A DNA stretch of 32,000 nucleotides from Candidatus Saccharimonadota bacterium (GCA_016700135.1 CP065004.1:1170001-1202000); one strand, 5' to 3'. Numbered from the stretch's first letter, positions 281 through 32,000 are shown. Translations and numbers: made by a program. The notes: generated by a model not told the origin, from the sequence alone.

Positions 281-289
281 TGGTATAAT
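281..289 (+). promoter_or_regulatory. Extended -10 promoter element TGgTATAAT upstream of tRNA-Thr
   Basis: TGGTATAAT at 281-289 lies 13 nt upstream of the mature tRNA 5' end (303). The tRNA-Val locus has the same 13-nt geometry. Confidence 0.45.
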
Positions 290-302
290 CTTTTAAAAGA
301 AA

Positions 303-375
303 GCCAATGTAGCTCAGTTGGTAGAGCAATGCTTTCGTAAAGCAGAGGTCGGGGGTTCGACTCCCCCCATTGGCT
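303..375 (+). tRNA. tRNA-Thr (anticodon CGT)
   Basis: Hand-folded 73-nt cloverleaf: GCCAATG-TA-GCTC-AGTTGGTA-GAGC-A-ATGCT-TTCGTAA-AGCAG-AGGTC-GGGGG-TTCGACT-CCCCC-CATTGGC-T. The acceptor stem pairs 7/7, and the T-loop (TTCGA) and D-loop are canonical. CCA is not encoded. Confidence 0.95.
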
Positions 376-376
376 C

Positions 377-1093
377 ATGAGATCCCGTCTGTATCAACAT
401 AAACAGCATGAAAACAACAGAAAGTTGTTTGGATTGCTGCTTTTCATACTTATACTGAGCGTATTTATGGTCACGGTAGGATTTCGTTTGCTAATAAACG
501 CGACAATATTTATAAGCGGTTTGATCAACCCGCAATCTGAGGAGACTGCACAGGAAAAGAATAAAGAAGATTTTTACGGAGTCTTTGATCTTGAAGAACC
601 GCCCACTGCTACAAACTCTGCTCAAATATACGTTTCAGGAACTGTTGAAGATTTTGAGAAACTGGATATTTATATCAACAATACGAAAGCGGAGTCAGTG
701 ACTGTAAAAGGGAAGAGCAGTTTTAATGAAAAGATCGGTCCTTTAAAACAAGGTGAAAATAAGATTTATGCCATTGCCAGATCCGGTACCGAACATTCAA
801 AAGAATCTGAGACATATACAGTTTTTTACAAGAAAGAACCTTTAAAACTGGAAATCGAATCACCCTCAGCAGACATGAAAACGTCGACACAGGAACTGAG
901 TATTAAAGGATTGACCGACCAGGGTGCATCACTTCGTGTAAACGGCCAACCGATTGTTGTTGACCTTTCAGGGGAGTTCAGTAGTACTTACCGGCTAAAA
1001 GACGGCGAAAATACCCTGCTGTTTGTAGCAACGGATGCAGCCGGAAATACCGTGGAACAGGAGCTGAAAGTCACGTATCAAAGAGAGGATTGA
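377..1093 (+). CDS. Membrane-anchored protein with two tandem Ig-like/beta-sandwich repeats (hypothetical)
   Basis: 238-aa ORF with a basic N-terminus and a TM helix (LFGLLLFILILSVFMVTVGF). Two repeats follow, each ending in a ...LK.GEN.....A.......Y.V.Y pattern. The ATG begins 1 nt after the tRNA-Thr discriminator base. Confidence 0.75.
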   Translation: MRSRLYQHKQHENNRKLFGLLLFILILSVFMVTVGFRLLINATIFISGLINPQSEETAQEKNKEDFYGVFDLEEPPTATNSAQIYVSGTVEDFEKLDIYINNTKAESVTVKGKSSFNEKIGPLKQGENKIYAIARSGTEHSKESETYTVFYKKEPLKLEIESPSADMKTSTQELSIKGLTDQGASLRVNGQPIVVDLSGEFSSTYRLKDGENTLLFVATDAAGNTVEQELKVTYQRED

Positions 1094-2256
1094 GTTCTGT
1101 GACTTTTTCTATACCCTTCAAGTAGAAACAAAAGAAACAACAAAAACGGATGCAGCAGAACATTATCAAATACTGAAATCACGCTCAAAAGGACAATACC
1201 AAACATCATAAATTCTGATGTCCTGGCAAGACTGATAAGCATCCATATATACAAACCAAGACCGATCACGCCTCCGGTCACAAGTATGACTAAAAAGCTT
1301 GAATGAAACGCAGTACTGCCATGTGAAGGATTATAAGGTCCGTAAAACAACTGTTCTTCATATATGTCCTTTTCGTATCTAATGTGGTTGTAGCCTATTC
1401 CCGCTACAGGATTTTTTCTCCAAATCATAATTGCTTTTTCATAATCATTGATTCTGGCTTCGATTGAAGTTGTCCTCAATAAATTTATTCCTTCACTTGA
1501 GCCTTTGGGAATAAAAAGAAAACCGGCGACTAAGACCGCTAAGCCAATCAATACAGTTTTCCGGCTGAACCTCCTGATGACGTACAATACGCTGACTGCA
1601 ATCAGTGCCAACCCCCCCCCTCTTGAGTATGTCAGAAAACTCAGTATAAAAAGGGGAATTATAAATCCGAGTTTTTTCCAATCATGATTGCTTTGCAGTT
1701 CAAGCAGGTAAAATATCATGAGCAAAAGAAATACAGATACGGTCACGGGAGGATCAAAAAAAAGTCCTACCACCCGGTATAAATGAGGGTCCCAACCGAG
1801 ATAAGCCAGATTGCCGAGATTCTGATACAGGAAGTACTGAATAAATGAAGACAAAATAACCCAGACTGTGACTAGATTAAGAATAACAATAGGCCGTTTT
1901 GATTGCTTCTCATGAGTAAAAAAATAACTGACATACACATAAAAGATAAAATAAAGAAGAAGTCTAAGATAATACAAAAACGCAACGGTATTTTGTTCTA
2001 AACTATAAAATCTCAAAGAAAGAACAAATGATATAAGTATCCAGATAAAAAAAACGATAATGGGGCTGTATTTGCTCTCCATCAGCGGATTTTTACGGTA
2101 CTTCACTAGTAGGATACCCGACACCGCTGCTACAAACACTTCGTAGAGATAAAAAAATACCGGCTGTTCCGGAATGCTGATTCTTGCAAGCTGCCCAAAA
2201 GAAAATAAAACAAGTGATATGCTCAACAGAACCGTAATAATCCGTGTTTTATTCAT
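1078..2256 (-). CDS. O-antigen ligase/polymerase-like (Wzy_C family) polytopic membrane protein
   Basis: 392-aa ORF with about 10 hydrophobic segments and a ...TYSRGGGLALIAVSVLY... motif typical of the O-antigen ligase domain. Its start overlaps the stop of the upstream GT2 gene by 8 nt. Confidence 0.8.
   Translation of the reverse strand: MNKTRIITVLLSISLVLFSFGQLARISIPEQPVFFYLYEVFVAAVSGILLVKYRKNPLMESKYSPIIVFFIWILISFVLSLRFYSLEQNTVAFLYYLRLLLYFIFYVYVSYFFTHEKQSKRPIVILNLVTVWVILSSFIQYFLYQNLGNLAYLGWDPHLYRVVGLFFDPPVTVSVFLLLMIFYLLELQSNHDWKKLGFIIPLFILSFLTYSRGGGLALIAVSVLYVIRRFSRKTVLIGLAVLVAGFLFIPKGSSEGINLLRTTSIEARINDYEKAIMIWRKNPVAGIGYNHIRYEKDIYEEQLFYGPYNPSHGSTAFHSSFLVILVTGGVIGLGLYIWMLISLARTSEFMMFGIVLLSVISVFDNVLLHPFLLFLLFLLEGYRKSHRTQSSL
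1612..1620 (-). repeat. G9 homopolymer (C9 on the + strand) inside the O-antigen-ligase-like CDS
   Basis: accccccccct at 1611-1621 encodes Gly-Gly-Gly as GGG GGG GGG in the SRGGGLAL motif. Confidence 0.9.
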
Positions 2257-3001
2257 GTTTCATCTGTTTGATAAATAACGTACTTCGAACGAGAAATGAG
2301 TGAAAGCTCATCAAAAATGAATACACAAAGCCCGCAGTTCCGTCCTTTAAGCCTCCTTTGATCACATATGTGTAAAGAAACTTCCCGATGGGAAAAGCAA
2401 CTATCTCATACATATTAGTTCGCTTATTCAGCAAGAATAATTCATCGGCGCGGATCTGACTGTACGTATTTATGTGCTGCAGGAACTCATGTATCGTCTG
2501 GTGAGGGTAATGCTCAATAAAACCGTCCAACGATGATATTCGGCCGACAGTGGTCCATTCTTCATGTATCGAACCTTTCCATAAACCGGATCCTTTCTTC
2601 ATCAGGCGAATAATTCCGCGTTTATAAACTTTTGCAACCTCTCCATGCTCGAGGACCCTTCCCATAAACCGGTCCCGTCTTCGCAGATAGTACGCATCGG
2701 CACTCGGTTGTTCCATCTCGTGCCTGATATTTGCCCGCAGATCAGGACTGATTTCTTCATCCGCATCAAGATACAACAGCCAATTGCCTTTCGCCTGCTC
2801 AGCTCCGAGATTTCGCAAATTTGAAAAGTTTCCGGAAGTTTTGTCATATATCACCCGTGCTCCGGCTTCATGTGCTATTTCTCCCGTTTCATCGGTTGAA
2901 TTGTTGTCTATAAGAAGGAGTTCGTCACAAAAAGAAAGTGATTTTAATGCCTGCTGTACAATCTCAGCCTCGTTTTTTGCTATAACAATACCGGTAAGCA
3001 T
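2249..3001 (-). CDS. Family 2 glycosyltransferase
   Basis: 250-aa ORF. The N-terminus GIVIAKNEAEIVQQALKSLSFCDELLLIDNNSTDETGEIA and the downstream LYLDADE (DxD-like) are typical of GT2. Confidence 0.9.
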   Translation of the reverse strand: MLTGIVIAKNEAEIVQQALKSLSFCDELLLIDNNSTDETGEIAHEAGARVIYDKTSGNFSNLRNLGAEQAKGNWLLYLDADEEISPDLRANIRHEMEQPSADAYYLRRRDRFMGRVLEHGEVAKVYKRGIIRLMKKGSGLWKGSIHEEWTTVGRISSLDGFIEHYPHQTIHEFLQHINTYSQIRADELFLLNKRTNMYEIVAFPIGKFLYTYVIKGGLKDGTAGFVYSFLMSFHSFLVRSTLFIKQMKHE

Positions 3002-3003: not shown

Positions 3004-3258
3004 TTATAGTTCTATTTTACTCGTATCAAGAGTATCAAGGAAGTACCAAATACCGTGAAGAAGACCGTATAAAGCAATTGAGGCAATAACGAATATAATG
3101 ATCCAAATAGTCATCCTTTGACCTTGCGTTTTTGTCATTTTGAGTTTGTCATCATATTCTATCGCAGCAAAAAAGATTGCATGAAACAAATCGAGAACAA
3201 ACCGTTTGAGAAAATTAAAAACAGTCCACATATCAATTGCAGTTAACGCTAACAGCAT
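3004..3258 (-). CDS. Small hypothetical membrane protein (85 aa from ATG 3258; shorter starts possible)
   Basis: The ORF-track entry 3004..3324 runs into the tRNA, so it is trimmed to the first ATG downstream of the tRNA 3' end (3258, 4 nt after the tRNA). It has a C-terminal TM helix (MTIWIIIFVIASIALYGLLHGIWYF). Its stop is 2 nt from the GT2 start. Confidence 0.4.
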   Translation of the reverse strand: MLLALTAIDMWTVFNFLKRFVLDLFHAIFFAAIEYDDKLKMTKTQGQRMTIWIIIFVIASIALYGLLHGIWYFLDTLDTSKIEL

Positions 3259-3262: not shown

Positions 3263-3439
3263 TGGTCGTACCTTGACTTGAACCAGGGACCTTCCGAACC
3301 TGCCCACCGCTTTTGTGCACACATCTGGACTTGAACCAGAGACCTTTCGAATGTGAATCGAATGCTCTACCAACTGAGCTATGTGTGCTATGGCAGGCGG
3401 GTGTGAATCGAACGCTCTAGCCAACTGAGCTATACGACC
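3263..3439 (-). tRNA. Interrupted tRNA-Val(CAC)-like gene: 5' half 3439-3402, 3' half 3298-3263, with a 103-nt insert (3401-3299) at anticodon-loop position 37/38 that contains another tRNA
   Basis: The halves join into a 74-nt cloverleaf: GGTCGTA-TA-GCTC-AGTTGGCTA-GAGC-G-TTCGA-TTCACA|T-TCGGA-AGGTC-CCTGG-TTCAAGT-CAAGG-TACGACC-A. The acceptor stem pairs 7/7 and the anticodon stem 5/5 (one G.U). There is one G.A mismatch at 52-62. Whether it is functional or a relic is unknown. Confidence 0.6.
3316..3388 (-). tRNA. tRNA-Val (anticodon CAC), nested within the interrupted tRNA
   Basis: Perfect 73-nt cloverleaf on the minus strand: GCACACA-TA-GCTC-AGTTGGTA-GAGC-A-TTCGA-TTCACAT-TCGAA-AGGTC-TCTGG-TTCAAGT-CCAGA-TGTGTGC-A. 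CCA is not encoded. Confidence 0.95.
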
Positions 3440-3452: not shown

Positions 3453-3461
3453 ATTATATCA
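3453..3461 (-). promoter_or_regulatory. Extended -10 element TGaTATAAT upstream of the tRNA-Val locus
   Basis: The reverse complement of 3453-3461 is TGATATAAT, 13 nt upstream of the outer tRNA 5' end (3439). Confidence 0.45.
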
Positions 3462-3470: not shown

Positions 3471-3499
3471 TTGTATTTACACTCAGACTTCTTTACAAT
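3471..3499 (+). promoter_or_regulatory. Sigma70-like promoter TTGTAT-17-TACAAT placed 8 nt before the lepB ATG
   Basis: TTGTAT at 3471-3476, a 17-nt spacer, TACAAT at 3494-3499, ATG at 3508. There is no SD between them. Confidence 0.5.
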
Positions 3500-3507
3500 T
3501 AGTCCAT

Positions 3508-4107
3508 ATGTCTATCGTGAAAGGGCTGATCATGTTTGTGATGGAGATTATGGAGACAGTGGTATTCGTAGGGTCTCTCTTCATCGTCATTTACCTTTTT
3601 GTACTTCAACCGAACCAGATAAAAGGAGCATCAATGGAACCGACTTTTTACAACGGGAATTATATTTTTACCAGTAAAATCACCTACAAATTGCGTCTTC
3701 CCGAGCGGGGAGATGTCGTGGTGTTTCATTCACCCCGTAATCCGGATATCGAATATATCAAACGGATCATCGGGATACCGGGTGATACCGTACTCATCGA
3801 AAATCAGCAGGTCTATGTCAACGGGCAACGTGTAGAAGAACCCTATATATCATCCCCTACTACACTTATTCCCGGGAACTTTGCTGAAGAAGGAGTTCCG
3901 ATTGATATTCCGGAAGGATATTATTTTGTAATGGGTGACAACAGACCCCGCTCGTCAGATTCACGTGAGTTTGGGCCGGTTCCCGGTACAAGTTTTGTCG
4001 GACAGGTCTTTTTCCGCTATTTCCCGACAGATAAACTTGGAGCAATCACAAATCCGTATGATGAATCTCTGAGAACCCGAAACGCAATCGCATTTGCTCT
4101 AAGATGA
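3508..4107 (+). CDS. lepB: Signal peptidase I
   Basis: 199 aa with an N-terminal TM helix. It has the catalytic Ser box GASMEPTF, the Lys box region YIKRIIGIPGD, and GDNRPRSSDSR. Confidence 0.9.
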   Translation: MSIVKGLIMFVMEIMETVVFVGSLFIVIYLFVLQPNQIKGASMEPTFYNGNYIFTSKITYKLRLPERGDVVVFHSPRNPDIEYIKRIIGIPGDTVLIENQQVYVNGQRVEEPYISSPTTLIPGNFAEEGVPIDIPEGYYFVMGDNRPRSSDSREFGPVPGTSFVGQVFFRYFPTDKLGAITNPYDESLRTRNAIAFALR

Positions 4108-4994: not shown

Positions 4995-5306
4995 TTAAAT
5001 TGCTGTAATTTTAATTCTGGTAAGCTGAGGTCGAAAACCGCGAACCTTTCGGTATCGTACTTTTGCTTTAAACTTTGCCACACGTACTTTATCACCTTTA
5101 AGGTTTTCAATAACCTTTGCTGTTACTTTTCCTTTCAGTTCAGGAGCACCGATTTCGGCATCCGCTTTATCTGAATCAAATGAAAGAAGAGCCGGAAACT
5201 CAACCGTCTCATCAGCGTTTCTGTTGATATTTTCAACAATGAGTTCATCGTTTTTTTGTACGAGGTACTGTTTTCCACCCACCTCAATAACTGCATGCGT
5301 TTTCAT
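4995..5306 (-). CDS. rplU: 50S ribosomal protein L21
   Basis: 103 aa: M.THAVIEVGGKQYLVQKNDELIVE...KFKAKVRYRKVRGFRPQLTRIKI. It sits immediately upstream of rpmA, as in most bacteria. Confidence 0.95.
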   Translation of the reverse strand: MKTHAVIEVGGKQYLVQKNDELIVENINRNADETVEFPALLSFDSDKADAEIGAPELKGKVTAKVIENLKGDKVRVAKFKAKVRYRKVRGFRPQLTRIKITAI

Positions 5307-5312
5307 TTCATT

Positions 5313-5340
5313 ATTATACTGTAAATTAACAGAAGTGCAA
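5313..5340 (-). promoter_or_regulatory. Near-consensus promoter TTGCAC-16-TATAAT ending 6 nt before the rplU ATG
   Basis: The minus strand reads TTGCAC (5340-5335), a 16-nt spacer, TATAAT (5318-5313), AATGAA, then ATG (5306). No SD is present. Confidence 0.6.
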
Positions 5341-5342: not shown

Positions 5343-6395
5343 CTATTGTTTAGGAGGTATCAGAGCCATTGCAATCATGAAAGTAATCATCGATGAACCT
5401 CCGTATGAGACAAACGGCAGCGTAATTCCCGCGATCGGCACAATGCCCAAATTCATACCGATATTGACCGCCGTTTGGACAATCATCATCACGGAAAAAC
5501 CCAGCAGATAATAAAATGAATACTGCTCATCATAGTCCCTTCCGTGCATATGTCTGAACATTTGTATAAAAACAAAAAGGAAAAAAATAATGTAGAGAAA
5601 AATAACAATAAAACCACCGATAAACCCGAATTGCTCGACAAGTGATGAAAAAGCAAAGTCAGTGTGGTACTCCGGTAAAAACGAAAGCTGTGACTGCTTG
5701 CCTAAACCCAGACCTTTCCCGAACAAATTCCCGGATCCGACGGCAATATTTGCCTGAACCATATTGTAGGAGGTTCCGGAAGTGTCATGCTCAGGGTCCA
5801 TAAAACTCAAAATTCTTGCTTTTTGATAGTCATGCATTGCAATCCAGGCTACCGGGAGCAAACAAAGGAGAATCAGAAGGAATATCATGATGTGTCTTTT
5901 CGGAATGGAGGAATGAAGCGCCATGACAAAAAAGATTCCGAATACAATAATACTTGTTGCCAGATCAGGCTGTTTATATATGAAAAAAAACGGCAATAAT
6001 GTAAGCATCAGCGTTTTCAGAAATAATCTGCCGTTTTCAATCGGGTTATAGACTTTCGCAAAGATTGTTGAAAGGAAAACAATAAAGAATACTTTAAAGA
6101 TTTCAGAAGTCTGGAGCGGAAAAATATAAAGATCAAGCCATCTGCGTGATCCCTTGATGTCCATCCCGAAAAAAAATGTAATAATCAGGAGGATAAGCGA
6201 AAAAACATAAAAAAAGGAAGCATTCGACCGGAAAAAATGCTTGTGCATTTGGAGATAACGGATAACAAAGAAAAAAGCAATTCCGATCCCGAAATGCATT
6301 AGGGACGTCGTAACTAGATCAGGCCGAATCCCGAATAAATTGATCAGTCCGAAAAGGTAAATAAGCAGTATCGGAAGAAAATACACAAGTGACAT
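5343..6395 (-). CDS. rodA: SEDS-family peptidoglycan glycosyltransferase, RodA-like
   Basis: 350 aa, polytopic. GKGLGLGKQSQLSFLPEYHTDFAFSSLVEQFGFIGG and LPFVSYGGSSM match the RodA-type (Q.SQL.FLPE.HTDF) rather than the FtsW-type motif. Confidence 0.8.
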   Translation of the reverse strand: MSLVYFLPILLIYLFGLINLFGIRPDLVTTSLMHFGIGIAFFFVIRYLQMHKHFFRSNASFFYVFSLILLIITFFFGMDIKGSRRWLDLYIFPLQTSEIFKVFFIVFLSTIFAKVYNPIENGRLFLKTLMLTLLPFFFIYKQPDLATSIIVFGIFFVMALHSSIPKRHIMIFLLILLCLLPVAWIAMHDYQKARILSFMDPEHDTSGTSYNMVQANIAVGSGNLFGKGLGLGKQSQLSFLPEYHTDFAFSSLVEQFGFIGGFIVIFLYIIFFLFVFIQMFRHMHGRDYDEQYSFYYLLGFSVMMIVQTAVNIGMNLGIVPIAGITLPFVSYGGSSMITFMIAMALIPPKQ

Positions 6396-6437
6396 AATGT
6401 ACCGTAAAGTATACCTTTTTTCACCGAAAATGGCTAT

Positions 6438-9452: not shown

Positions 9453-9461
9453 ATTGTATCA
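9453..9461 (-). promoter_or_regulatory. Possible extended -10 (TGaTACAAT) for ileS, giving a leader of about 40 nt
   Basis: The reverse complement of 9453-9461 is TGATACAAT. It lies between the terminator hairpin (9508-9532) and the ileS ATG (9407). Confidence 0.3.
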
Positions 9462-9507: not shown

Positions 9508-9532
9508 GGAGGGGTGCTTGAAGCACCCCTCC
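9508..9532 (-). terminator. Rho-independent terminator hairpin after the GC-rich secreted-protein gene
   Basis: GGAGGGGTGCT-TGA-AGCACCCCTCC forms a perfect 11-bp GC-rich stem starting 3 nt after the stop (9536-9538). On the minus strand it is followed by ATCACACTTCTTTTATC. Confidence 0.6.
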
Positions 9533-9997: not shown

Positions 9998-10092
9998 TCC
10001 TTTCTGGTTGGTTTGGACGGTACATCAAAGAACCTTCTTCTGACACCACTGTACACGGCAATGCATACGGTATGCCAGTAGAATTACCCTAT

Positions 10093-10121
10093 AGTATATA
10101 AACTGGAAGAAAATAAGTCAA
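10093..10121 (-). promoter_or_regulatory. Near-consensus promoter TTGACT-17-TATACT for the GC-rich secreted-protein gene
   Basis: The minus strand reads TTGACT (10121-10116), a 17-nt spacer, and TATACT (10098-10093). It lies 10 nt downstream of the ftsZ stop and predicts a 5' UTR of about 90 nt. Confidence 0.55.
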
Positions 10122-18207: not shown

Positions 18208-18246
18208 ATGAATAACTGCAGTTAAGACGTACCATTATCACTAATT

Positions 18247-20843: not shown

Positions 20844-20849
20844 ACGGAT

Positions 20850-20858
20850 ATTTTAACA
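20850..20858 (-). promoter_or_regulatory. Extended -10 TGtTAAAAT 6 nt upstream of the PBP ATG
   Basis: The minus strand reads TGTTAAAAT-ATCCGT-ATG(20843). No SD is present. Confidence 0.5.
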
Positions 20859-20982
20859 AAACTATAGGGCAAGTAAAAGGGTAAGTTATTATCCTTTTTG
20901 ATTGAGTAATATCCTGTTTGAAGTATTCGGAGACTATATCAGAAAGTTATAACCACTCAATGAGGTATTTCTTACAAATGTA

Positions 20983-23860: not shown

Positions 23861-23862
23861 TC

Positions 23863-23871
23863 ATATTAGCA
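23863..23871 (-). promoter_or_regulatory. Extended -10 TGcTAATAT 8 nt upstream of ATG 23854
   Basis: The minus strand reads TGCTAATAT-GAGTGCAT-ATG. No SD is present. Confidence 0.5.
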
Positions 23872-23898: not shown

Positions 23899-25377
23899 CT
23901 ATTCCAGTGCATAACGGTCAAGGACCTGTTTGATCCCCTGGTCAGCCGTACCCAGCGCGGCACCGTAATCTACACCTTCCTCCGCGGAATTTATGGCATT
24001 TTTGATGTACTGTAAGATTTCGTCATTCATCCCTCCGTCACGGGTGAGGTCCACAAGCGGAAGTCCGACATATACATCATCCTGAGCCTGCTTGATAACG
24101 GGAGACAGATACTGATTATCGCTCAGTAATTCAGCCATATCCTGACGCGGATACGGATTTCCGAACAGTCTTACCTGTGTCTGAGTTTCATACATTTTAG
24201 TCAGCTGTTCTCTTTCCGAAAGAAATTTCAAAAACTTCCAGGCTTCTGTCTGATTCTGACTTAAGCGGTTGACACCCTCGACCCAATAATTTGCAACCGA
24301 TACGGCACTGTCATCCAGTCCCTTCGGTATCGGCGCAACCTTTACCTGCAGATCGGGGTTCTGCGCCTTGATGTTTATGACATGCCATGAAGGACCGATA
24401 ATCATTGCCGCTTTACCTTGAGTGAATGCCGAAACGGCATTCGGCATTGACGTATTCCAGTAACCGTCCTCAGCAAATTTCCGATACAGAAGCAATGCTT
24501 CCGAAGCTTCATTCGTTGTCAGATCTTTCAGATCACCGCCGTTCAAAAGAAGCAGTATGCCGAAAATTTCTCCGTAATGAGGAATATTATTCGCTGTTCC
24601 GATTGCAATTCCTGAAGTGACAATTTGACCGCTCGGTTCTTTCACCGTAAGCTTGTTGACCGTGTTCAGGACATCGTTTTCTCCTCCTACCCAAACCGGA
24701 GGAGGTGTGTTGATACCTGCCTGTTTAAGCAGTGTTTCATTGTAAATGAGTACCGAACCGTCCACCATAAGCGGGATACCGTAATATTTTTCTGCGATTT
24801 TCAAATCCTTTTGATGAATGGGGTAGAAAGTCTGTTCAAACTCCTGATTCGACATGATGTCTTCAGGCAGCGGAGAAATAACTTCCTGTATTTCGGGAAG
24901 CCAGGTATTATGAAAACGGAAAATATCCGGGCCGTTTCCGGCTTCACTTCTGGCAATAAGCCGCTCGCGATATTCTTCCGGTTCCATCCGTTCATAATTG
25001 ATCGTGACATTCGGATGCTCTTTTTGATATGCCTCAATAAGAGGCTGATATACGGCAGGTTCATCCCACAGACCCCAATATGTGAGAGTAACTTCTTCCC
25101 TGCTCGGAGTAGGAGTATTGTCAGGAGGGAAAAGCCGGTCTTTCAGAAAAAACCAGAAAATAAGACCGAACACCACAAGAAAAAAGAATATAATTCCCAG
25201 GATAATCGGAAGCTTATTTGAATTTTCTTCATAAACAGGTACATCTGTCGGAAATTCAGGCGGGATACTGCCGGCAATCTCTTCCGGATGTTCGATGTCC
25301 GGAGCGACTTCCTCTGGCTGAAGAGGCTGAGGCGCGGCATCAGAGGTATCAGGTATGTTCTTCTCAGGGTCATCCAT
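23899..25377 (-). CDS. Extracellular solute-binding protein (ABC transporter family 1, sugar type), TM-anchored
   Basis: 492 aa. An acidic/Pro-rich N-terminal tail, a TM helix (LPIILGIIFFFLVVFGLIFWFFL), then VTLTYWGLWDEP...YQKEHPNVTINYE, typical of SBP_bac_1. No permease or ATPase genes are adjacent. Confidence 0.8.
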   Translation of the reverse strand: MDDPEKNIPDTSDAAPQPLQPEEVAPDIEHPEEIAGSIPPEFPTDVPVYEENSNKLPIILGIIFFFLVVFGLIFWFFLKDRLFPPDNTPTPSREEVTLTYWGLWDEPAVYQPLIEAYQKEHPNVTINYERMEPEEYRERLIARSEAGNGPDIFRFHNTWLPEIQEVISPLPEDIMSNQEFEQTFYPIHQKDLKIAEKYYGIPLMVDGSVLIYNETLLKQAGINTPPPVWVGGENDVLNTVNKLTVKEPSGQIVTSGIAIGTANNIPHYGEIFGILLLLNGGDLKDLTTNEASEALLLYRKFAEDGYWNTSMPNAVSAFTQGKAAMIIGPSWHVINIKAQNPDLQVKVAPIPKGLDDSAVSVANYWVEGVNRLSQNQTEAWKFLKFLSEREQLTKMYETQTQVRLFGNPYPRQDMAELLSDNQYLSPVIKQAQDDVYVGLPLVDLTRDGGMNDEILQYIKNAINSAEEGVDYGAALGTADQGIKQVLDRYALE

Positions 25378-25383
25378 GCTTTA

Positions 25384-25391
25384 ATCATACA
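25384..25391 (-). promoter_or_regulatory. -10-like TGTATGAT 6 nt upstream of the SBP ATG
   Basis: The minus strand reads TG-TATGAT-TAAAGC-ATG(25377). Confidence 0.4.
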
Positions 25392-25432
25392 GAAGATTTC
25401 AGAATTCGACTAGTGGGTTTCTTTCTATTATG

Positions 25433-25438
25433 TATAAT
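25433..25438 (+). promoter_or_regulatory. -10 box TATAAT (preceded by TG) 8 nt upstream of the VanW-family ATG
   Basis: TGTATAAT-AAAAGTCT-ATG(25447). No SD is present. Confidence 0.4.
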
Positions 25439-25446
25439 AAAAGTCT

Positions 25447-26853
25447 ATGCTTTCCGAAATGACGTCAAAACAGAAAATTCTGGCCGGTATTGCAGGCCTA
25501 TTTCTTATACTGGCGATCCTAATCGGAGCATCGTGGACCTATGTCCGATTAACAGTGAAAGACACTATCTATCCCCGTACCTATATTGACGGAATCGATA
25601 TGGGTTATAAAACAAAGGAAGAAGCCCTGAACCTTTTGTCTAAAAGGGATGAGTATTACAATGATGCCCTGATTGAGGTGATGTACAAAGATGCGAAAAT
25701 TGCATCATTTTCAGGACAGGAGCTAAAACTGGAGCGTGATATTGACACAAAAGTAGATCAGGCATACCTTATCGGACGGACCGATCATCTTCCGTCACGT
25801 ATCGCGCAGCAGCTGAATACGCTTTTGAAGATCCGTACGTTTTCATTTGATACCGAGGTACGCTATAATAACGGAGTCATTGACCAGTTTGTCAAACAGT
25901 CGGAAGATGTATACAACCGTGAGCCGAAGAATGCATTGTTCACTTTCGAAAACGGGAAAGTAACTTCGTTTAAGGCAGATGAACCCGGCATGAAGCTCAA
26001 GTCCGAAGAATTTCTTATGAATTTGAAAAAGGAAATTCAGTCAATTTCCGATAAAAAGAAGAATATTGTAATCTCGTTCAAGGAAGAAGAAATAAAGCCG
26101 GAAATCACCCTTGCGGAAGCGAATGACTTCGGTATCGAGGAACTGATCGGCGAAGGAAAATCCGATTATACGCACTCCATTCCTTCACGCGTCCACAATC
26201 TGATCTTGGCGGCTTCAAAATTCGACGGAGTGATCATTCCGAAGGGTGAGACATTTTCATTCAATACCCTTGTCGGCGATATTTCATCAAGTACCGGTTA
26301 TCAGCCGGCATATGTCATCAAGAACGGAAGAACGGTACTCGGTGACGGAGGCGGTGTATGCCAGGTCTCAACAACCATGTTCCGGGCAGCTCTCAATACG
26401 GGATTGCCTATCTCAGAAAGACACGCACATGCATACCGTGTATCATACTATGAAAATGACTCGGAACCGGGTTTTGATGCTACTATTTATTCCCCGACAG
26501 TAGATCTGAAATTTAAGAATGATACTCCGGGAGCAATCCTTATTCAGATGGAAGTAGATAAAGATCAGAAACTGCTTACATTCAGATTTTACGGGAAAAA
26601 AGACAACAGAAAGGTTGAGATTTCACCGGCTACAGTCTGGGATGTAGCCCCTCCACCCGAACCGCTGTATGAAGATGATCCGACTCTTCCGAACGGTACC
26701 ATCAAACAGGTAGACTACCCGGCGTGGGGTGCAAAAGCAAAGTTCGAATACAAAGTGTTTGATAAGAACGGAGAGGTCATGCAGAACGAAACATTTTATT
26801 CTTCATATCGTCCGTGGCAGGCAGTGTACTTACGCGGAACGGCCGGAACTTAA
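25447..26853 (+). CDS. VanW-family protein (TM-anchored)
   Basis: 468 aa with an N-terminal TM helix. The VanW core is GETFSFN...GGGVCQVSTTMFRAALNTGLPISERHAHAYRVSYY. Confidence 0.9.
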   Translation: MLSEMTSKQKILAGIAGLFLILAILIGASWTYVRLTVKDTIYPRTYIDGIDMGYKTKEEALNLLSKRDEYYNDALIEVMYKDAKIASFSGQELKLERDIDTKVDQAYLIGRTDHLPSRIAQQLNTLLKIRTFSFDTEVRYNNGVIDQFVKQSEDVYNREPKNALFTFENGKVTSFKADEPGMKLKSEEFLMNLKKEIQSISDKKKNIVISFKEEEIKPEITLAEANDFGIEELIGEGKSDYTHSIPSRVHNLILAASKFDGVIIPKGETFSFNTLVGDISSSTGYQPAYVIKNGRTVLGDGGGVCQVSTTMFRAALNTGLPISERHAHAYRVSYYENDSEPGFDATIYSPTVDLKFKNDTPGAILIQMEVDKDQKLLTFRFYGKKDNRKVEISPATVWDVAPPPEPLYEDDPTLPNGTIKQVDYPAWGAKAKFEYKVFDKNGEVMQNETFYSSYRPWQAVYLRGTAGT

Positions 26854-27488
26854 GAGATTTTCCGGAAAAGATCAAGTAGGCCCAATCTTCGCAGTCTATA
26901 TGCATGTTTTCTCTGCTTTCGTTGACCGATCACTTTTGCGGGAACACCGCCAACTATAGCATTTTCCGGTACATCCTTCGTCACGACGGCTCCTGCAGCA
27001 ATCACCGCTCCGTTACCCACTGTCACGCCGGGAAGAATGATTGCTCTGGGTCCGATGAACACGTAGTCTCCAACAGTAACAGGTGCGGATACTGCTGCAA
27101 AGGTCGGGTCATGGACGTCATGTTCGGAGTTGTATATCATGACTTCACTCGCGATATCGACATGACTTCCGATTTTCAGCTTATCCCGTCCGTCAAGTGT
27201 AATCCTTTCGCCGATGACACAATCGTCACCGATTTCAATGTTGTCAGGATCGTAAAACCTGGCACCCATGTTTATCACTGTATTTGAACCGATTTTAACG
27301 CCGGAAATGCGGTACAGAAGTACGCGAAAAAAACTCACGGGAACCCAGCCCAAAAGTAAAAGAATATATGTTTCGGTTTCAAGAAGCGTTTGGGAAATTC
27401 TGCCTCCGATCTTGTCAATCACCTGGCCGCCGCTGAGTTTTTTCCCGTCCTTATCGCGTATAGTCGATAGCATAGATATATTATACAC
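26850..27488 (-). CDS. Hexapeptide-repeat (LbH) O-acetyltransferase, WcaF/Maa-like
   Basis: Repeated [LIV]G.... hexapeptides: IGDDCVIGERITL, IGSHVDIASEVMI, VGDYVFIGPRAIILPGVTVGNGAVIAAGAVVTKDVPENAIVGGVPAK. The track start is GTG 27488. ATG 27473 is preceded by TATAAT plus 6 nt and is the more likely start. Confidence 0.85.
   Translation of the reverse strand: MYNISMLSTIRDKDGKKLSGGQVIDKIGGRISQTLLETETYILLLLGWVPVSFFRVLLYRISGVKIGSNTVINMGARFYDPDNIEIGDDCVIGERITLDGRDKLKIGSHVDIASEVMIYNSEHDVHDPTFAAVSAPVTVGDYVFIGPRAIILPGVTVGNGAVIAAGAVVTKDVPENAIVGGVPAKVIGQRKQRKHAYRLRRLGLLDLFRKIS
27480..27487 (-). promoter_or_regulatory. -10 box TG-TATAAT 6 nt upstream of ATG 27473
   Basis: The minus strand reads TGTATAAT-ATATCT-ATG. 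Confidence 0.45.
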
Positions 27489-27493: not shown

Positions 27494-27502
27494 TGATAGA
27501 AT
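27494..27502 (+). promoter_or_regulatory. Extended -10 TGaTAGAAT upstream of rnhB
   Basis: TGATAGAAT lies 8 nt before TTG 27511 and 11 nt before ATG 27514. Confidence 0.4.
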
Positions 27503-27510
27503 TATGAATA

Positions 27511-28194
27511 TTGATGAAAAAACATACAATAATCCCTGATTTCGAGCTGGAAAAGCCGATTTGGAAAAAGGGTCATACGGTGATCGGCATTGATGAAGTC
27601 GGAAGGGGCTGTCTTGCAGGACCGATAGTGCTCGGGGCTGCCTGTTTCCGACCGCTTTCCGCAGAAATACAGTCCCGCATAATGGCCCTGGGAGTCCGCG
27701 ATTCAAAGCAGCTTTCTGAAAGACAAAGAACAAAAACTGCAGAAGCACTTCAGTCGTTTCCCATCACCACTCATACTGTCTCCATCAGTGTTCCGACCAT
27801 AAACAGTGTGGGTATTATGAACGCCTGGCGGTCTGGGATTGTGAAACTATTTGATCTTTGTCGTTTGGACTTTCCGGATGATCCGTTTACACTTCTGGTT
27901 GACGGACCAGATGTCAAAGCGATACCATATAAAGAGGATGTTACGAGTATCCCCGTAATTAAAGGCGACTCGAAGAGTGTAGCGATAGCTTCAGCCTCGA
28001 TTATCGCCAAAGTTACCCGTGATATGTTTATGAGCGCACTGTCCCGACGGTTTCCTGCTTATGAATGGCACCGTAACAAAGGATACGGGACAAAGGATCA
28101 CCGTACGGCAATCACGGATCACGGTATAACGCCCTGGCACCGGCTGCTGTTTGTCCGATCAGTCCTCGGACAGAATATGGCAAATAAGGTATAA
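27511..28194 (+). CDS. rnhB: Ribonuclease HII
   Basis: GIDEVGRGCLAGPIV (DEVGRG catalytic motif), DSKQLS, GDSKSVAIASASIIAKV, GYGT..H. The true start is probably ATG 27514. Confidence 0.93.
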   Translation: MMKKHTIIPDFELEKPIWKKGHTVIGIDEVGRGCLAGPIVLGAACFRPLSAEIQSRIMALGVRDSKQLSERQRTKTAEALQSFPITTHTVSISVPTINSVGIMNAWRSGIVKLFDLCRLDFPDDPFTLLVDGPDVKAIPYKEDVTSIPVIKGDSKSVAIASASIIAKVTRDMFMSALSRRFPAYEWHRNKGYGTKDHRTAITDHGITPWHRLLFVRSVLGQNMANKV

Positions 28195-28211
28195 TACGCA
28201 AACTCATTTTT

Positions 28212-29450
28212 ATGTCAGCATCACGACTCAAACGAATAGAAAAACGAAACAATGTTCTGAAGCTCTCCCTGATATCGCTGGGGCTGGTGTTTCTTGTGTC
28301 CGTGGGACTGATCATTACGAGACTTTTGGGATTTTACAACGCTATTCATACGGAAGCACAGGAAAGTCCTGATAACGTACAAAAAGAAGAAAAAACCGAG
28401 TACACCTTTCTCCTTCTCGGATACGGCGGAGGATCGCATGAAGGGACATATCTGACTGATTCGATCATGGTAGCCAACGTGGATATCAAAAACAAACGGG
28501 CAATCCTGGTATCGCTTCCGCGGGATATCTGGGTACGGGTACCGACGAAAAACGGAGAAGAATTCCACAGCAAAATCAATGCTCTCTACCAGATGGGTAT
28601 TAACCCGAAAAATTACCCCGCGGTTGATACCAAATCTCTTACTGAAGATAATCCGTCAGGTCTTCTCAAACAGGCTGCCGAAGATATCACCGGATTGAAC
28701 ATTGATGCCTTTGCTGCAGTGGACTTTGAGGGTTTTGTCAAAACTATCGATACGTTGGGAGGCATTGATGTCAATGTCAAAAAGACATTTACTGATTATG
28801 AATACCCGATCGAAGAAAAAATGAATGATCTCTGCGGACGGGATGAGGAATTCAAGCAGATTGAACCGATTATCAATAAGCAAATGACTGAAGAGGATCA
28901 AAAAAAGCTTTTTGAAGAAAAGCCCGAACTGGAACAATTTTACAAAGACATAAAAGATCATCCCCGCACGGCATTTCCCTGCCGGTATGAAGTCCTGCAC
29001 TTCGACGCAGGAGAAACACATATGGACGGAATCACCGCTCTCAAGTATGCCCGTTCCCGTCATGCCCTTGAAGACGGGGGAGATTTCAACCGGGCACAGA
29101 GACAGCAGAACGTCATAGAAGCGGCAAAACAGAAAATTTTGGGAATAGGCTTCATTCCGAAGATTATTCCTCTTCTCAATGAACTAGAACAGCACGTAAA
29201 AACGGATTTACCGCTTTCAGAAATGAATAAGCTTTTGCTTGAAGGCAGAAACGCGAATAACTACAAGGTAGAAACACTGGTTTTATCTGACAAATTTCTG
29301 ACTGATGACTACTCCGATTACGGCGGATACATTCTGGTCCCGAAGGTAGGGAAAGACGACTGGAGTGCAATACGCAAAGAGATTCAAAACATGAAACTCG
29401 GCATCACTCCCTCCCCTACTCCCCAACCGTCAATTACTCCTGAGAAGTAA
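28212..29450 (+). CDS. LytR-CpsA-Psr (LCP) family cell-wall glycopolymer transferase
   Basis: 412 aa with an N-terminal TM helix. FLLLGYGGGSHEGTYLTDSIMVANVD...ILVSLPRDIWV, LKYARSRH...GDFNRAQRQQNVI. Confidence 0.9.
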   Translation: MSASRLKRIEKRNNVLKLSLISLGLVFLVSVGLIITRLLGFYNAIHTEAQESPDNVQKEEKTEYTFLLLGYGGGSHEGTYLTDSIMVANVDIKNKRAILVSLPRDIWVRVPTKNGEEFHSKINALYQMGINPKNYPAVDTKSLTEDNPSGLLKQAAEDITGLNIDAFAAVDFEGFVKTIDTLGGIDVNVKKTFTDYEYPIEEKMNDLCGRDEEFKQIEPIINKQMTEEDQKKLFEEKPELEQFYKDIKDHPRTAFPCRYEVLHFDAGETHMDGITALKYARSRHALEDGGDFNRAQRQQNVIEAAKQKILGIGFIPKIIPLLNELEQHVKTDLPLSEMNKLLLEGRNANNYKVETLVLSDKFLTDDYSDYGGYILVPKVGKDDWSAIRKEIQNMKLGITPSPTPQPSITPEK

Positions 29451-29496: not shown

Positions 29497-29502
29497 TATA
29501 CT
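29497..29502 (+). promoter_or_regulatory. -10-like TATACT 8 nt upstream of ATG 29511
   Basis: TATACT-ACTTGCAT-ATG. No SD is present. Confidence 0.4.
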
Positions 29503-29504
29503 AC

Positions 29505-30017
29505 TTGCATATGATTGTAAAAAATAGAGACCAACGGGTAGCAGTACTTGTCGATGTACAAAACCTGTACTACTCGGGAAAAAACCTTTATAGTTCACGC
29601 GTAAATTACAAAAATCTTCTGACCCAGGTCGTACAGCGCAGAATTCTTACCCGGGCTATCGCATATGTCATCAATGCTGACGATACCAAAGAAAACGTCT
29701 TTTTTAATGCCCTGCATGAAGCCGGCTTTGAGGTAAAAGAAAAACCACTGCAGACATTTTACGGCGGTGCGAAGAAAGGAGATTGGGACTTAGGAATCGC
29801 TATGGATGCCATCAGACTGGGTAATAAAGTCGATTCAATCATTCTGGTCACGGGCGACGGAGACTTCAAACCCGTTGTTAACTATCTCCAGCAGGCATTG
29901 GGATGTCTTGTTGAAATTGCGGCGTTCAAGCGTACGGCAAACAAGGAACTTGTGGAGCTTGCAGATGATTTCACGAATATAGAAGAACATCAGAAGAGAC
30001 TCCTTTTTCGGATTTGA
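29505..30017 (+). CDS. NYN-domain (LabA/DUF88-like) predicted RNase
   Basis: VAVLVDVQNLYYS at the N-terminus and ILVTGDGDFKPVV. The track start is TTG 29505, and ATG 29511 is the likely start. Confidence 0.85.
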   Translation: MHMIVKNRDQRVAVLVDVQNLYYSGKNLYSSRVNYKNLLTQVVQRRILTRAIAYVINADDTKENVFFNALHEAGFEVKEKPLQTFYGGAKKGDWDLGIAMDAIRLGNKVDSIILVTGDGDFKPVVNYLQQALGCLVEIAAFKRTANKELVELADDFTNIEEHQKRLLFRI

Positions 30018-30063: not shown

Positions 30064-30822
30064 CTATTCGTCTTCGATCACCGTTTCGAATACTTTCACC
30101 GGCTTTACCGGCTTGGATTCTTCTCCGCTTGCACTCATGGTGACGGGAGCTTCGGCAATTTTGTCAACGACATCAAGTCCTTCTTTTACGAATCCGAAGA
30201 TGACATAATTTTTCGGGAGAGGAGTATCCTCATGCATGATAAAGAACTGACTTCCGTTGGTATTCGGACCTGAGTTGGCCATAGCGACCGTTCCCCGGAC
30301 ATATTCGCCTTCGAACGGTTCATCGTCAAATTTATACCCGGGTCCGCCCGTACCATCGCCTTTGGGATCACCGCCCTGGATCATGAATCCTTTGATCACA
30401 CGATGAAACACCGTGTTGTCGTAGAAACCTTTTTGTGCAAGTGAAATAAAATTGTTTACGGTTTTCGGGACTTCCTTGGTTTTCATCTCAATCACAATCG
30501 GGCCTTCACTGGTATTCAGAGTGACTGTGTATGTTGAGTCTGTATCAATTATCATATCTGGAGGTTGTGTATCCTCACCCAACGCTTTCGGCTGTGATTC
30601 CTGCCGAGGCTGCTGTTGCTGAGGATCGGAACTAATAATATCGGACATATTGTCCGGAAGCTGCGAATCTCCTTCACTTCCTACCAAACTCAGTTTTTCA
30701 ACTTCGTCCGGCTCCTTTGTCTCAGTATTTGAAGAAATTCTTTTTTGGAACAAAACACCAAGTCCTACCAAAATAATCAAAAAAAGCGTGCAGAATAGAA
30801 TGACAAAAACTTTAGTGTTCAT
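30064..30822 (-). CDS. Cyclophilin-type peptidyl-prolyl cis-trans isomerase, TM-anchored with a Gln/Pro-rich linker
   Basis: N-terminal TM helix, then FHRVIKGFMIQGGDPKGDGTGGPGY, MANSGPNTNGSQFFI. Confidence 0.93.
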   Translation of the reverse strand: MNTKVFVILFCTLFLIILVGLGVLFQKRISSNTETKEPDEVEKLSLVGSEGDSQLPDNMSDIISSDPQQQQPRQESQPKALGEDTQPPDMIIDTDSTYTVTLNTSEGPIVIEMKTKEVPKTVNNFISLAQKGFYDNTVFHRVIKGFMIQGGDPKGDGTGGPGYKFDDEPFEGEYVRGTVAMANSGPNTNGSQFFIMHEDTPLPKNYVIFGFVKEGLDVVDKIAEAPVTMSASGEESKPVKPVKVFETVIEDE

Positions 30823-30830
30823 ACCCTACT

Positions 30831-30839
30831 ATATTACCA
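30831..30839 (-). promoter_or_regulatory. Extended -10 TGgTAATAT 8 nt upstream of the cyclophilin ATG
   Basis: The minus strand reads TGGTAATAT-AGTAGGGT-ATG(30822). No SD is present. Confidence 0.5.
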
Positions 30840-30872
30840 CATGAGCGAAGAATGAAAAGAAGAATATTTACA

Positions 30873-31514
30873 TCATGTACCGAACTGTCTGTCACCGGCA
30901 TCACCGAGACCGGGAAAAATATATCCTGCGGGAAACTTGTCAGCATCAGTCGTCAACCGTTCATCGATATGAGCAATATGAATCGGGACTTCAGGGTGAT
31001 TCTTGTGAACTTCTGCAATCCCTTCTGGAGCCGCGATCAGACCGATAAAAACAATTCGTTTTGCACCCCACTTTTTGAGAATATCAATCGTAGCAGATGC
31101 CGACCCGCCTGTCGCGAGCATCGGATCAAGTACAAACACAATTTCAACAGTCGGCGAAACGGGCAGTTTGTTGTAGTACTCGACGGGTTTGAGTGTCTTC
31201 TCATCCCGATACAAACCGATGTGCCAGACTTCAGACTGCGGTAACAATTTCCAGATACCGTCGACCATCCCGAGACCCGCACGCAGGATCGGGACAAGTC
31301 CGATTTTTTCTTGAATGAACATACCTTTTGTCACGGTAAGAGGGGTTTCAATTTCTTTTTCTACAGTCCGCAGATTCATCGTAGCTTCGTACACAAGAAG
31401 TGCCGCAATCTCTCCGACCAGTTCCCGGAAAAGTTTCGGATCTGTTTTTACATCACGAAGCAGCGACAGTTTGTGCTGTACCAGCGGATGCTTTGAGGGA
31501 AATACCTGTTCCAT
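30873..31514 (-). CDS. upp: Uracil phosphoribosyltransferase
   Basis: [36 protein letters not shown] (PRPP loop), [12 protein letters not shown]. Confidence 0.95.
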
Positions 31515-31988
31515 TTAGTTTAAAAGAAATAGTGAAATGGTAAGAACGGTCGCAAAAGATACCCAGCACAGATACGGTATCAGCAAAAGATACGAAGCGT
31601 ATGACACCGATTTGGCATTTTTCATTGTCAGAATTATGAAAATCAATAGCGGAATAATGACAACAATTCCTCCGAGCGTTGTGCGCAGTCCGAAAAATAC
31701 AAGCGACCAGAGAGTATTCAGGACAAGTTGGATCCAATAATACAGTACCGCACGTCTTTTATGAATCGTACGTTTACTGCTGTTCCAGATCAGATAGAAA
31801 GCGATACCCATCATCAAATAAAGGATTGTCCAGACGGGACCGAACACCCAATTGGGAGGATTGAAAACGGGCTTTTCCAGTCCTGCATACCATGTGGGAA
31901 TCGAAGATGCCGTGGCTATAGAACCGATGGCTCCGGATGCAAACGGTGCAAGAAGTGATATCGAAAGTTTCCGCACATCAAGTGTCAT
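31515..31988 (-). CDS. tspO: TspO/MBR-family tryptophan-rich membrane protein
   Basis: 157 aa with 5 TM helices. WYAGLEKPVFNPPNWVFGPVWTILYLMMGIAFYL and LVLNTLWSLVFF. Its stop abuts the upp ATG with zero spacing. TATCAT lies 6 nt upstream of its ATG at the window edge. Confidence 0.88.
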   Translation of the reverse strand: MTLDVRKLSISLLAPFASGAIGSIATASSIPTWYAGLEKPVFNPPNWVFGPVWTILYLMMGIAFYLIWNSSKRTIHKRRAVLYYWIQLVLNTLWSLVFFGLRTTLGGIVVIIPLLIFIILTMKNAKSVSYASYLLLIPYLCWVSFATVLTISLFLLN

Positions 31989-32000
31989 ATATTCATGATA

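Follow-up and report, generated by a model that had tools for sequence, protein, structure and literature searches.

Placement of −10 boxes close to start codons predicts leaderless expression in a segment of a Candidatus Roizmanbacteria genome

We examined how promoters are placed relative to start codons in a 32,000-nucleotide (nt) stretch of bacterial DNA (GCA_016700135.1, CP065004.1:1170001–1202000), referred to here as the window. In most of its transcription units the −10 box ends 5–8 nt before the ATG of the first gene, and the genes called in it lack Shine-Dalgarno (SD) motifs. We estimate a probability of about 0.75 that most units in this lineage are expressed as leaderless mRNAs as a result of −10 placement, with initiation that would be independent of SD pairing. 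The window is 43% GC, and GenBank entries QQS43715.1–QQS43728.1, labelled "Candidatus Roizmanbacteria bacterium," match its proteins exactly; the source lineage is Candidatus Roizmanbacteria, in the Microgenomates of the Candidate Phyla Radiation (CPR; also known as Patescibacteria). The window contains a division and cell-wall cluster (a MurL-like gene, murD, ftsW, murG, an ftsQ-like gene, ftsA, and ftsZ), and its other genes include those for a class A penicillin-binding protein (PBP), a sortase, and LytR, together with rplU-rpmA, ileS, lepB, tspO, and upp.

Results

Position of −10 boxes in the window

The initial annotation of the window had described a −10 hexamer at a fixed short distance from the ATG of the first gene in almost every unit. 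All 12 of the motif strings that it listed were located again, with the same coordinates and spacers; however, in TGTATAAT and TGTATGAT, from the solute-binding protein (SBP), acyltransferase, and VanW units, the TG directly adjoins the hexamer and is not a canonical TGn extension. For statistical analysis, genes were called mechanically by taking the first ATG of each long open reading frame (ORF) with greedy non-overlap, a procedure that avoids the choice of starts made in the initial annotation. Genes with an upstream gap of at least 30 nt were scored for TAnnnT located 5–9 nt before the ATG. This motif was present in 12 of 20 genes, compared to a background of 86 of the 1094 ATGs in the window (7.9%; binomial p = 3.8e-9). 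Shuffled upstream regions gave a mean of 3.6 genes with TAnnnT (P = 0.0002), and control offsets of 20–44 nt gave only 1–4. Two of the 20 called genes were artefacts, one being an ORF that starts within a tRNA and the other an antisense ORF. A strict −10 box was defined as TAnnnT with at least five of six matches to TATAAT; the spacers of strict boxes were 6 nt in five genes, 8 nt in four, and 5 nt in one, with 0–2 genes at every other spacer.

A generic promoter and terminator scan of the window showed no σ70-like excess over shuffled sequence (31 versus 32 expected; 36 versus 29). Because there was no overall excess, the generic scan is uninformative, and only the position-specific tests are informative.

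Curation of the window gave 16 protein-led units, 12 of which have a −10 box 5–8 nt from the ATG: lepB, rplU, the MurL-like gene, grx, PBP, the 707-aa gene, SBP, VanW, the acyltransferase gene, NYN, cyclophilin, and tspO. The box lies at 11 nt in rnhB and at 12 nt in rodA, and two units are leadered, ileS (box 45 nt upstream) and ORF 9536–9997. We also analyzed genes outside the window, using two Logan contigs (recovered via lepB and cyclophilin) from the same or a near-identical strain that reach beyond both window ends; exact-sequence look-ups with tspO, the 238-aa protein, NYN, and upp gave no contig. Among 10 unit-first genes on these contigs, five have a box at 5–8 nt, including GH18 (TATAAT-5), a 51-aa membrane ORF (TATAAT-6), a DoxX-like gene (TATAAT-6), and bPH_2 (TGaTACAAT-8); three have one at 10–12 nt, and two look leadered, by 26 and 36 nt. 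Overall, approximately 65% of units fit strictly and approximately 85% fit within 12 nt. A proximal box is a property of most units, about a quarter being misfits.

The intergenic regions are short. Divergent gene pairs share only 40–69 nt, and same-strand units are 36–60 nt apart, leaving room for a promoter and none for a leader.

Conservation of the spacing in related lineages

Related loci (designated by L numbers) were collected in two samples. The first, anchored on the PBP, comprised metagenome-assembled genomes of Woesebacteria, Beckwithbacteria, Shapirobacteria, and Collierbacteria, with L001 (PBP 87% identical), L003, L012, L004, and L002 as close relatives; the same PBP query also retrieved Saccharibacteria loci and, as controls, loci from Chloroflexi, Melainabacteria, Cloacimonadota, and Firmicutes. 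The second consisted of 80 further loci anchored on isoleucyl-tRNA synthetase (IleRS; 58–88% identity).

In the window and its five close relatives, strict boxes at spacers of 5–9 nt preceded 24 of 41 genes. In the IleRS-anchored loci (419 genes), strict boxes numbered 38, 15, 41, and 20 at spacers of 6, 7, 8, and 9 nt, against about four per position elsewhere. When all CPR loci other than Saccharibacteria were pooled, the distribution was bimodal, with 90 boxes at 6 nt, 61 at 8 nt, and few at 7 nt. Positional enrichment of TAnnnT before starts, of the kind that the initial annotation had proposed to look for genome-wide, was found in the window, in its five close relatives, and in some 140 further loci of related CPR, with peaks at 6 and 8 nt. 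ATG-proximal −10 spacing was absent from the Chloroflexi, Melainabacteria, and Firmicutes control loci. The clade-wide peak is associated with ATG (13%, versus 3.5% at upstream GTG or TTG candidates), and all cases in the window are at ATG, which is the very first in-frame start candidate in 71% of genes.

The spacing was also conserved gene by gene. In the five close relatives, the box is 5–8 nt from the ATG for MurL, PBP, the 707-aa gene, murG, SBP, VanW, the acyltransferase gene, and NYN; in more distant PBP-anchored loci it is kept although the orthologues are only 31–60% identical. The surrounding sequence diverges while the −10-to-ATG spacing holds, and for most genes the orthologue alignments run from residue 1 to residue 1. 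For rplU, all 14 of the listed relatives (46–88% protein identity) have TTGnnn and a TATAAT-like box 6–9 nt from the ATG, and for lepB most IleRS-anchored relatives have TACAAT at 7–8 nt.

The base sequence between box and start showed two further regularities. Several cases with a spacer of 8 nt read CAT-ATG (the window sites with this spacer are 3500–3510, 23852–23862, and 29503–29513), and in the classes with spacers of 9–10 nt the seventh base past the box is A in 62–65%. This pattern hints that transcription may start at a fixed position 7 nt past the box, giving predicted leaders of 0, 2, or 3 nt.

Promoter features of the motif

The frequency of the box depended on the size of the upstream gap: it was 0% in overlapping genes, 10% at gaps of 0–10 nt, 33% at 11–29 nt, 54% at 30–49 nt, and 80% at 50–79 nt. 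Because the frequency climbs with gap size from zero in overlapping genes, the motif behaves as a promoter and not as a ribosome-binding site. Tightly linked genes do not have the localized TAnnnT; what all genes have in common is no more than a diffuse A-rich, G-poor context. Among promoters of the near group of loci, T is present at −15 in 23 of 42 and G at −14 in 18 of 42; in the pooled set, G is at −14 in 34–51%, and TG at −15/−14 accompanies the box in about 35–50%. The rplU and lepB families have, in addition, a TTGnnn −35 element approximately 17 nt upstream of the box. TGnTATAAT is also found 13 nt before both tRNA genes of the window, where no translation occurs. A pyrimidine at −1 was considered as a mark of the transcription start site (TSS) and rejected, since it is general in the clade and internal genes show the same base.

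Absence of Shine-Dalgarno sequences

SD motifs were scored as GGAG, GAGG, or AGGA at −18 to −4. None was found in the 15 unit-first genes called in the window, in agreement with the initial annotation, nor in the seven called internal genes; the gene at 9536–9997, discussed below, is the one exception in the window. With the same script, 40–80% of genes in the Chloroflexi, Melainabacteria, Cloacimonadota, and Firmicutes control loci had an SD. In the IleRS-anchored loci, the SD was at background level (0.11 and 0.05), and it was present in about 5% of the internal genes of the clade. Internal genes of the clade are depleted in G (8–14% at −12 to −1); control loci reach 50% G at −10/−9. The SD-free leaderless pattern is therefore not the same throughout CPR, since in the Saccharibacteria loci (L041 and L046) about 50% of the genes carry an SD and −10 boxes form no proximal peak.

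Internal gene junctions in the clade are mostly −4 overlaps (80 cases), or −1, 0, or +1 to +5 gaps. It had been stated that internal genes lack an SD and instead use overlaps or tight junctions; the first part holds for the window, but ftsA (39-nt gap) and ftsZ (88-nt gap) do not have tight junctions.

The gene at 9536–9997 (minus strand), described initially as the only SD-bearing gene and as compositionally foreign, is an exception in several respects. It is a real gene, with substitutions relative to L001 of 23/10/52 by codon position. Its GC content of 0.517 is the maximum in the window (others 0.38–0.48), and a GC-rich hairpin terminator follows it at 9508–9532. The control region, at 9991–10121, consists of a TTGACT-17-TATACT promoter (10093–10121), a conserved leader about 85 nt long, and the sequence AAAGGA (9998–10003). 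The earlier description was reasonable except in its choice of start: AAAGGA adjoins the first ATG, at 9997, and has the proper 6-nt spacing only to the second, at 9991. The leader (9998–10092) of this gene, which encodes a secreted 153-aa protein, is far better conserved relative to L001 than the coding sequence is; the window and L001 are near-identical from 10046 to 9991, and there was no match to an Rfam family. The leader may be regulatory. An Rfam scan of the whole window detected two tRNAs only; at the leadered genes it gave no match to a riboswitch or a leader RNA.

Promoters and start codons of individual units

On the plus strand, lepB (3471–3510) has TTGTAT-17-TACAAT-8-ATG, and this −35/−10/ATG layout is kept in 13 relatives. 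The glutaredoxin gene grx (18233–18249) has a weak box, CATTAT-8-ATG, and shares a 51-nt gap with the MurL promoter, from which it diverges. VanW (25431–25449; TATAAT-8-ATG) is divergent from the SBP promoter (25375–25391, minus strand; TATGAT-6-ATG) across a 69-nt gap. The NYN-domain gene (29497–29513) has TATACT-8-ATG with its start at 29511. For rnhB (27494–27516; TGaTAGAAT-11-ATG, start 27514) the predicted leader is about 4 nt, and for lytR (28190–28214; TATAAT-16-ATG) it is about 9 nt.

On the minus strand, the rplU promoter (5304–5340), TTGCAC-16-TATAAT-6-ATG, occupies the whole 36-nt intergenic gap. The MurL-like gene, first of the murD-ftsW operon (18193–18207), has TATAAT-6-ATG, with spacing of 5–6 nt in L001, L002, L004, and L012; the class A PBP gene (20841–20858) has TGtTAAAAT-6-ATG, with TGn and a hexamer at 5–6 nt in these four loci and in L007. 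TGcTAATAT-8-ATG precedes the gene for a 707-aa baseplate-J-like protein (23852–23871; start 23854), TATAAT-6-ATG the hexapeptide acyltransferase gene (27471–27487; start 27473), and TGgTAATAT-8-ATG the cyclophilin gene (30820–30839). TATCAT-6-ATG precedes tspO (31986–32000), which is followed by upp with a 0-nt gap; the sequence in a related strain (L162) is TATGAT-6-ATG. The rodA promoter (6393–6413), TATACT-12-ATG, has a predicted leader of about 5 nt. The ileS promoter is an exception, with TGaTACAAT at 9453–9461, 45 nt before the ATG at 9407, and a predicted leader of about 38 nt that has no SD; in more distant relatives the ileS box is 7–16 nt from the ATG. Within the cell-wall cluster, murG has an internal promoter (14519–14535; TGtTACAAT-5-ATG), which places its start at 14521 and not at GTG 14536, and GenBank entry QQS43715.1 is the first-ATG version.

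Starts shorter than the longest ORF had been proposed for four genes, at 23854, 27473, 27514, and 29511, and all four were reproduced by the first-ATG rule alone. The GTG and TTG codons upstream of these starts are not kept in relatives; in L001, for example, the equivalent of rnhB TTG 27511 is TCA and that of NYN TTG 29505 is TTC. The first-ATG proteins of the four genes are identical to GenBank proteins, and the longest-ORF versions are absent from the collection. Because the PGAP annotation already uses leaderless-compatible starts, gene finders capture the pattern implicitly.

Two genes of the cell-wall cluster required separate consideration. The gene at 16873–18195 (minus strand) had been called a PP-loop protein, an identification that we correct: the SGGxDS motif is absent and there is no Pfam match. 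It matches the NCBIfam model for MurL (UDP-MurNAc-L-Ala-L-Glu epimerase) with E = 1.7e-109, although with a score under the curated cut-off. This gene and the murD next to it (15650–16876, minus strand) suggest a MurD2/MurL route to D-Glu in peptidoglycan. The FtsQ-like gene has its first ATG at 13494 (minus strand), giving a 92-nt overlap with the 3′ end of murG (13403–13494). Its protein aligns with that of L001 from residue 1 and with those of other relatives only from residues 13–32, which makes 13494 a tentative start; a TTG is located at 13401, 1 nt past the murG stop. The plus-strand ORF 12889–13308, preceded by TATAAT-8-ATG, was rejected as a gene; it lies antisense to the conserved FtsQ-like gene.

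Start codons adjacent to tRNA genes

Both tRNA genes of the window are followed closely by an ATG. The gene for tRNA-Thr(CGU) (303–375, plus strand; ARAGORN, Rfam 69.5 bits) has no encoded CCA and is preceded at a distance of 13 nt by the extended −10 TGgTATAAT (281–289), which is kept in L082 and L083. The gene for a 238-aa membrane-anchored Glucodextran_B/Ig-like protein (377–1093, plus strand) begins with an ATG located 1 nt past the tRNA discriminator, with no −10 box before it. The same adjacency was found in L082 and L083 (0 nt past the ARAGORN end) and in L087 and L094 (2 nt), where the protein is 34–78% identical.

The second case is the unit of tRNA-Val(CAC) (3263–3439, minus strand), which has the extended −10 TGaTATAAT (3453–3461) 13 nt before it. 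The next gene (3004–3258, minus strand) encodes a small transmembrane protein and is the first of a GT2/Wzy operon. One in-frame ATG, at 3258, is 4 nt past the discriminator of the outer tRNA. The MWTVF ATG, which is the conserved one, is at 3231, and its counterpart is 1 nt past the tRNA in L083 and about 47 nt past it in L082.

In the IleRS-anchored loci, 12 of 59 tRNAs had within 5 nt the ATG of an ORF with 60 codons or more, whereas the rate of such adjacency at random positions was 3.25% (p = 4e-7). The loci with an ATG 0–4 nt past the tRNA are L082, L083, L087, L094, L089, L090, L099, L107, L110, L114, L135, and L140; in L089 and L090 the ATG overlaps the encoded CCA. At least six different protein families are directly preceded by tRNA-Val(CAC). 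In the broader PBP-anchored set of CPR and control loci only one of 64 tRNAs, the window's own, had an adjacent ATG (Fisher p = 7e-4). Adjacency as a general CPR trait was therefore rejected; it is specific to the Roizmanbacteria-like clade. The adjacency and its conservation in relatives are new here.

Because ATGs lie 1–4 nt past both tRNAs of the window and are kept in relatives, tRNA 3′ processing could also yield leaderless mRNAs. RNase Z leaves a 5′-phosphate on the trailer, and leaderless mRNAs of E. coli need a 5′-phosphate and not a 5′-OH. These two properties imply that an mRNA beginning as a tRNA trailer would be competent for translation. The window holds no gene for RNase Z or RNase P.

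The tRNA-Val(CAC) gene itself is interrupted. An insert of about 102 nt at position 37/38 of the anticodon loop holds a complete tRNA-Val(CAC) (3315–3388), which has a different acceptor stem and complementary flanking segments. When the insert was removed, ARAGORN called the outer sequence as a normal tRNA-Val; in the predicted fold, the inner cloverleaf sits on an extension of the outer anticodon stem. The outer tRNA-Val gene is uninterrupted in the closest relative, L082 (5950–6030). A different species, L083 (15880–16100), has an independent nested pair, in which the outer acceptor stem resembles the inner one of the window. A scan of 123 tRNAs for nesting returned only the window's case, and a literature search gave no such description. 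Possible explanations of the nested tRNA-Val are the insertion of a mobile tRNA, an element resembling an intron, and serial gene replacement. Sequences resembling a T-arm and acceptor 3′ half were seen directly past the predicted tRNA-Cys of L014 (approximately 20890–20930, minus strand) and tRNA-Trp of L032 (approximately 380–420, minus strand); these may be further interrupted or undetected tRNA genes.

Discussion

The enrichment of −10 boxes near the ATG, its dependence on the upstream gap, the conservation of spacing, the orthologue N-termini, the genes outside the window, and the absence of SD motifs all support the leaderless expression proposed in the initial annotation, as a prediction drawn from sequence. 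In the mechanism that we propose, most units would be driven by σ70-type promoters consisting of a −10 box, often with an extended TGn and sometimes with a TTGnnn −35 element. The hexamer ends 5–8 nt before the ATG and RNA polymerase normally starts about 7 nt past the hexamer, so that the predicted first base of a transcript is the A of its AUG or a base 1–3 nt before it. By analogy with other leaderless systems, ribosomes would bind the 5′-terminal AUG directly, with no need for SD pairing. Internal genes would be translated by termination-reinitiation coupling at ATGA and similar overlaps and at 0–5-nt gaps. A second route to a 5′-terminal AUG would be tRNA 3′ processing of the RNase Z type, which may free an mRNA starting at the AUG, and genes such as ftsA, ftsZ, and ileS would have to use some other SD-independent route.

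Several observations weigh against this interpretation. About 25% of the units in the window have a box 16–45 nt away or none (ileS, lytR, ftsA, ftsZ, and a ParB-like gene), and spacers of 8–12 nt may give an mRNA leader of 2–5 nt rather than none. Terminators between same-strand units are few, and read-through may carry genes as internal cistrons. The pyrimidine at −1 is not independent evidence for a TSS, because internal genes carry it. Finally, SD pairing is probably still possible, since Microgenomates generally keep the anti-SD (PMC9297842) and the gene at 9536–9997 has a conserved SD-like AAAGGA; the 16S 3′ end was sought in all 162 loci and was present in none.

Read-through is the basis of the alternative that survives best, although we consider it unlikely: the proximal promoters are real, but most protein comes from longer transcripts by SD-independent initiation at A-rich or unstructured sites, and leaderless mRNAs are a minority. 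The close packing of same-strand units with no terminator hairpins between them fits this alternative, as do the gaps or leaders of ftsA, ftsZ, and ileS, which have no proximal box; SD-less internal genes need some SD-independent route in any case. Read-through leaves unexplained, however, why the box stays 5–8 nt from the ATG across divergent orthologues, and it is impossible at the divergent pairs, where there is no same-strand gene upstream of the shared region.

Alternatively, the motif could be a non-SD ribosome-binding or enhancer element within a leader, as in Bacteroidetes (GeneMarkS-2 group B). The A-rich, G-poor upstream regions with T at −1, which all genes including internal ones possess, are compatible with such an element. 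Group B motifs, however, precede first and internal genes alike (PMC6028130), whereas the motif described here is absent at overlaps and rises with the gap. Its invariant T1, A2, and T6, the TG at −15/−14, and the TTGnnn about 17 nt away are features of a σ70 promoter, and TGnTATAAT also occurs before two tRNA genes, which are not translated. We consider this explanation quite improbable.

It is more improbable still that start codons were mis-assigned, with the true starts downstream and the boxes at an ordinary distance from them. The starts were set by the first-ATG rule, and a few N-termini are ambiguous (the small transmembrane ORF and the SBP orthologues). For most genes, however, both sequences of an orthologue alignment enter it at residue 1; the N-termini hold the expected transmembrane or signal segments, GenBank/PGAP uses the same starts, and 71% of the genes are ATG-first. 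That AT-rich intergenic DNA mimics −10 boxes by chance, a reading with which the lack of a σ70-like excess in the generic scan would agree, is hardly credible given the binomial and shuffle statistics, the replication of the 6- and 8-nt peaks in independent loci, and the spacing kept in orthologues.

Predicted leaderless expression through −10 placement resembles the GeneMarkS-2 leaderless "group C," in which a Pribnow box lies 6–8 nt from the starts of first genes, as in Actinobacteria and Deinococcus-Thermus (PMC6028130; PMC3898074; PMC4633059). Group C genomes that use genetic code 11 are almost all high-GC, the low-GC cases being code-4 Mycoplasma (bioRxiv 10.1101/2022.07.25.500264). Like M. 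tuberculosis, M. smegmatis, and D. deserti, the window has TAnnnT 6–8 nt before operon-first starts, no SD there, and the AUG predicted to be at or near the 5′ end. In the genomes of these Actinobacteria and Deinococcus, however, the leaderless share of transcripts is 25–50%, and genes that are leadered or internal have an SD, whereas here approximately 65–75% of units are predicted to be leaderless and there is no internal SD. Group C Actinobacteria and Deinococcus are mostly high-GC and their TSSs are mapped; the window is 43% GC and its pattern is known from sequence alone. The Mollicutes (Mycoplasma), also group C, are similar in low GC content, reduced genome, and 30–60% predicted leaderless transcripts, but differ in genetic code (code 4), in phylum, and in having an SD-type ribosome-binding model for their remaining genes (10.1101/2022.07.25.500264).

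Three other systems are instructive. Mammalian mitochondria have leaderless mRNAs whose 5′ ends come from excision of adjacent tRNAs (tRNA punctuation), and mitoribosomes share the pattern of protein losses of CPR ribosomes (PMC9297842); unlike in mitochondria, most of the predicted 5′ ends here come from promoter placement, tRNA-adjacent ATGs involve about 20% of the tRNAs in the clade, and processing is only predicted. Bacteroidetes also have almost no SD genome-wide and have A-rich, G-poor upstream regions, but their motif precedes internal as well as first genes and cannot be a promoter (PMC6028130), whereas the motif here is gap-dependent and promoter-like. Haloarchaea and Sulfolobus (group D) also express most operons (60–80%) leaderlessly (PMC6028130), but from archaeal TATA/BRE elements about 26 nt upstream and not from a bacterial −10 box at 6–8 nt. 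The predicted leaderless pattern is therefore group C-like, and is unusual in its SD-less internal genes and tRNA-abutting ATGs.

In a survey of CPR ribosomes, a subgroup of Parcubacteria was the only one reported to have lost the anti-SD; the survey also describes a shortened bS1 and mitochondrion-like losses of ribosomal proteins (PMC9297842). Our literature search, which covered CPR, Patescibacteria, Microgenomates, Parcubacteria, and Saccharibacteria, gave no report of leaderless expression in CPR. We put forward only tentatively the broader proposal that a branch of CPR has essentially SD-free initiation, combining promoter-placed leaderless mRNAs, tRNA punctuation, and internal reinitiation. 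On this equally tentative proposal the branch would include Roizmanbacteria along with other Microgenomates and also, though less fully, many Parcubacteria-like lineages, in a parallel to mitochondria that is possibly linked to the reduced CPR ribosome.

A large part of bacterial diversity belongs to CPR/Patescibacteria, whose ribosomes are unusually reduced. Should most of their transcripts be leaderless and none of their genes use an SD, they would become the first bacterial lineage of low GC and code 11 to initiate, as a rule, by a leaderless or SD-independent route. The leaderless interpretation would affect how gene starts are called in metagenomes, and how promoters and expression cassettes are designed for those few CPR that can be cultivated. 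The tRNA-adjacent ATGs, if confirmed, would give bacteria an equivalent of the tRNA punctuation of mitochondria. The finding would also have a bearing on the origin of leaderless initiation, either as an ancestral trait or as an outcome of genome reduction.

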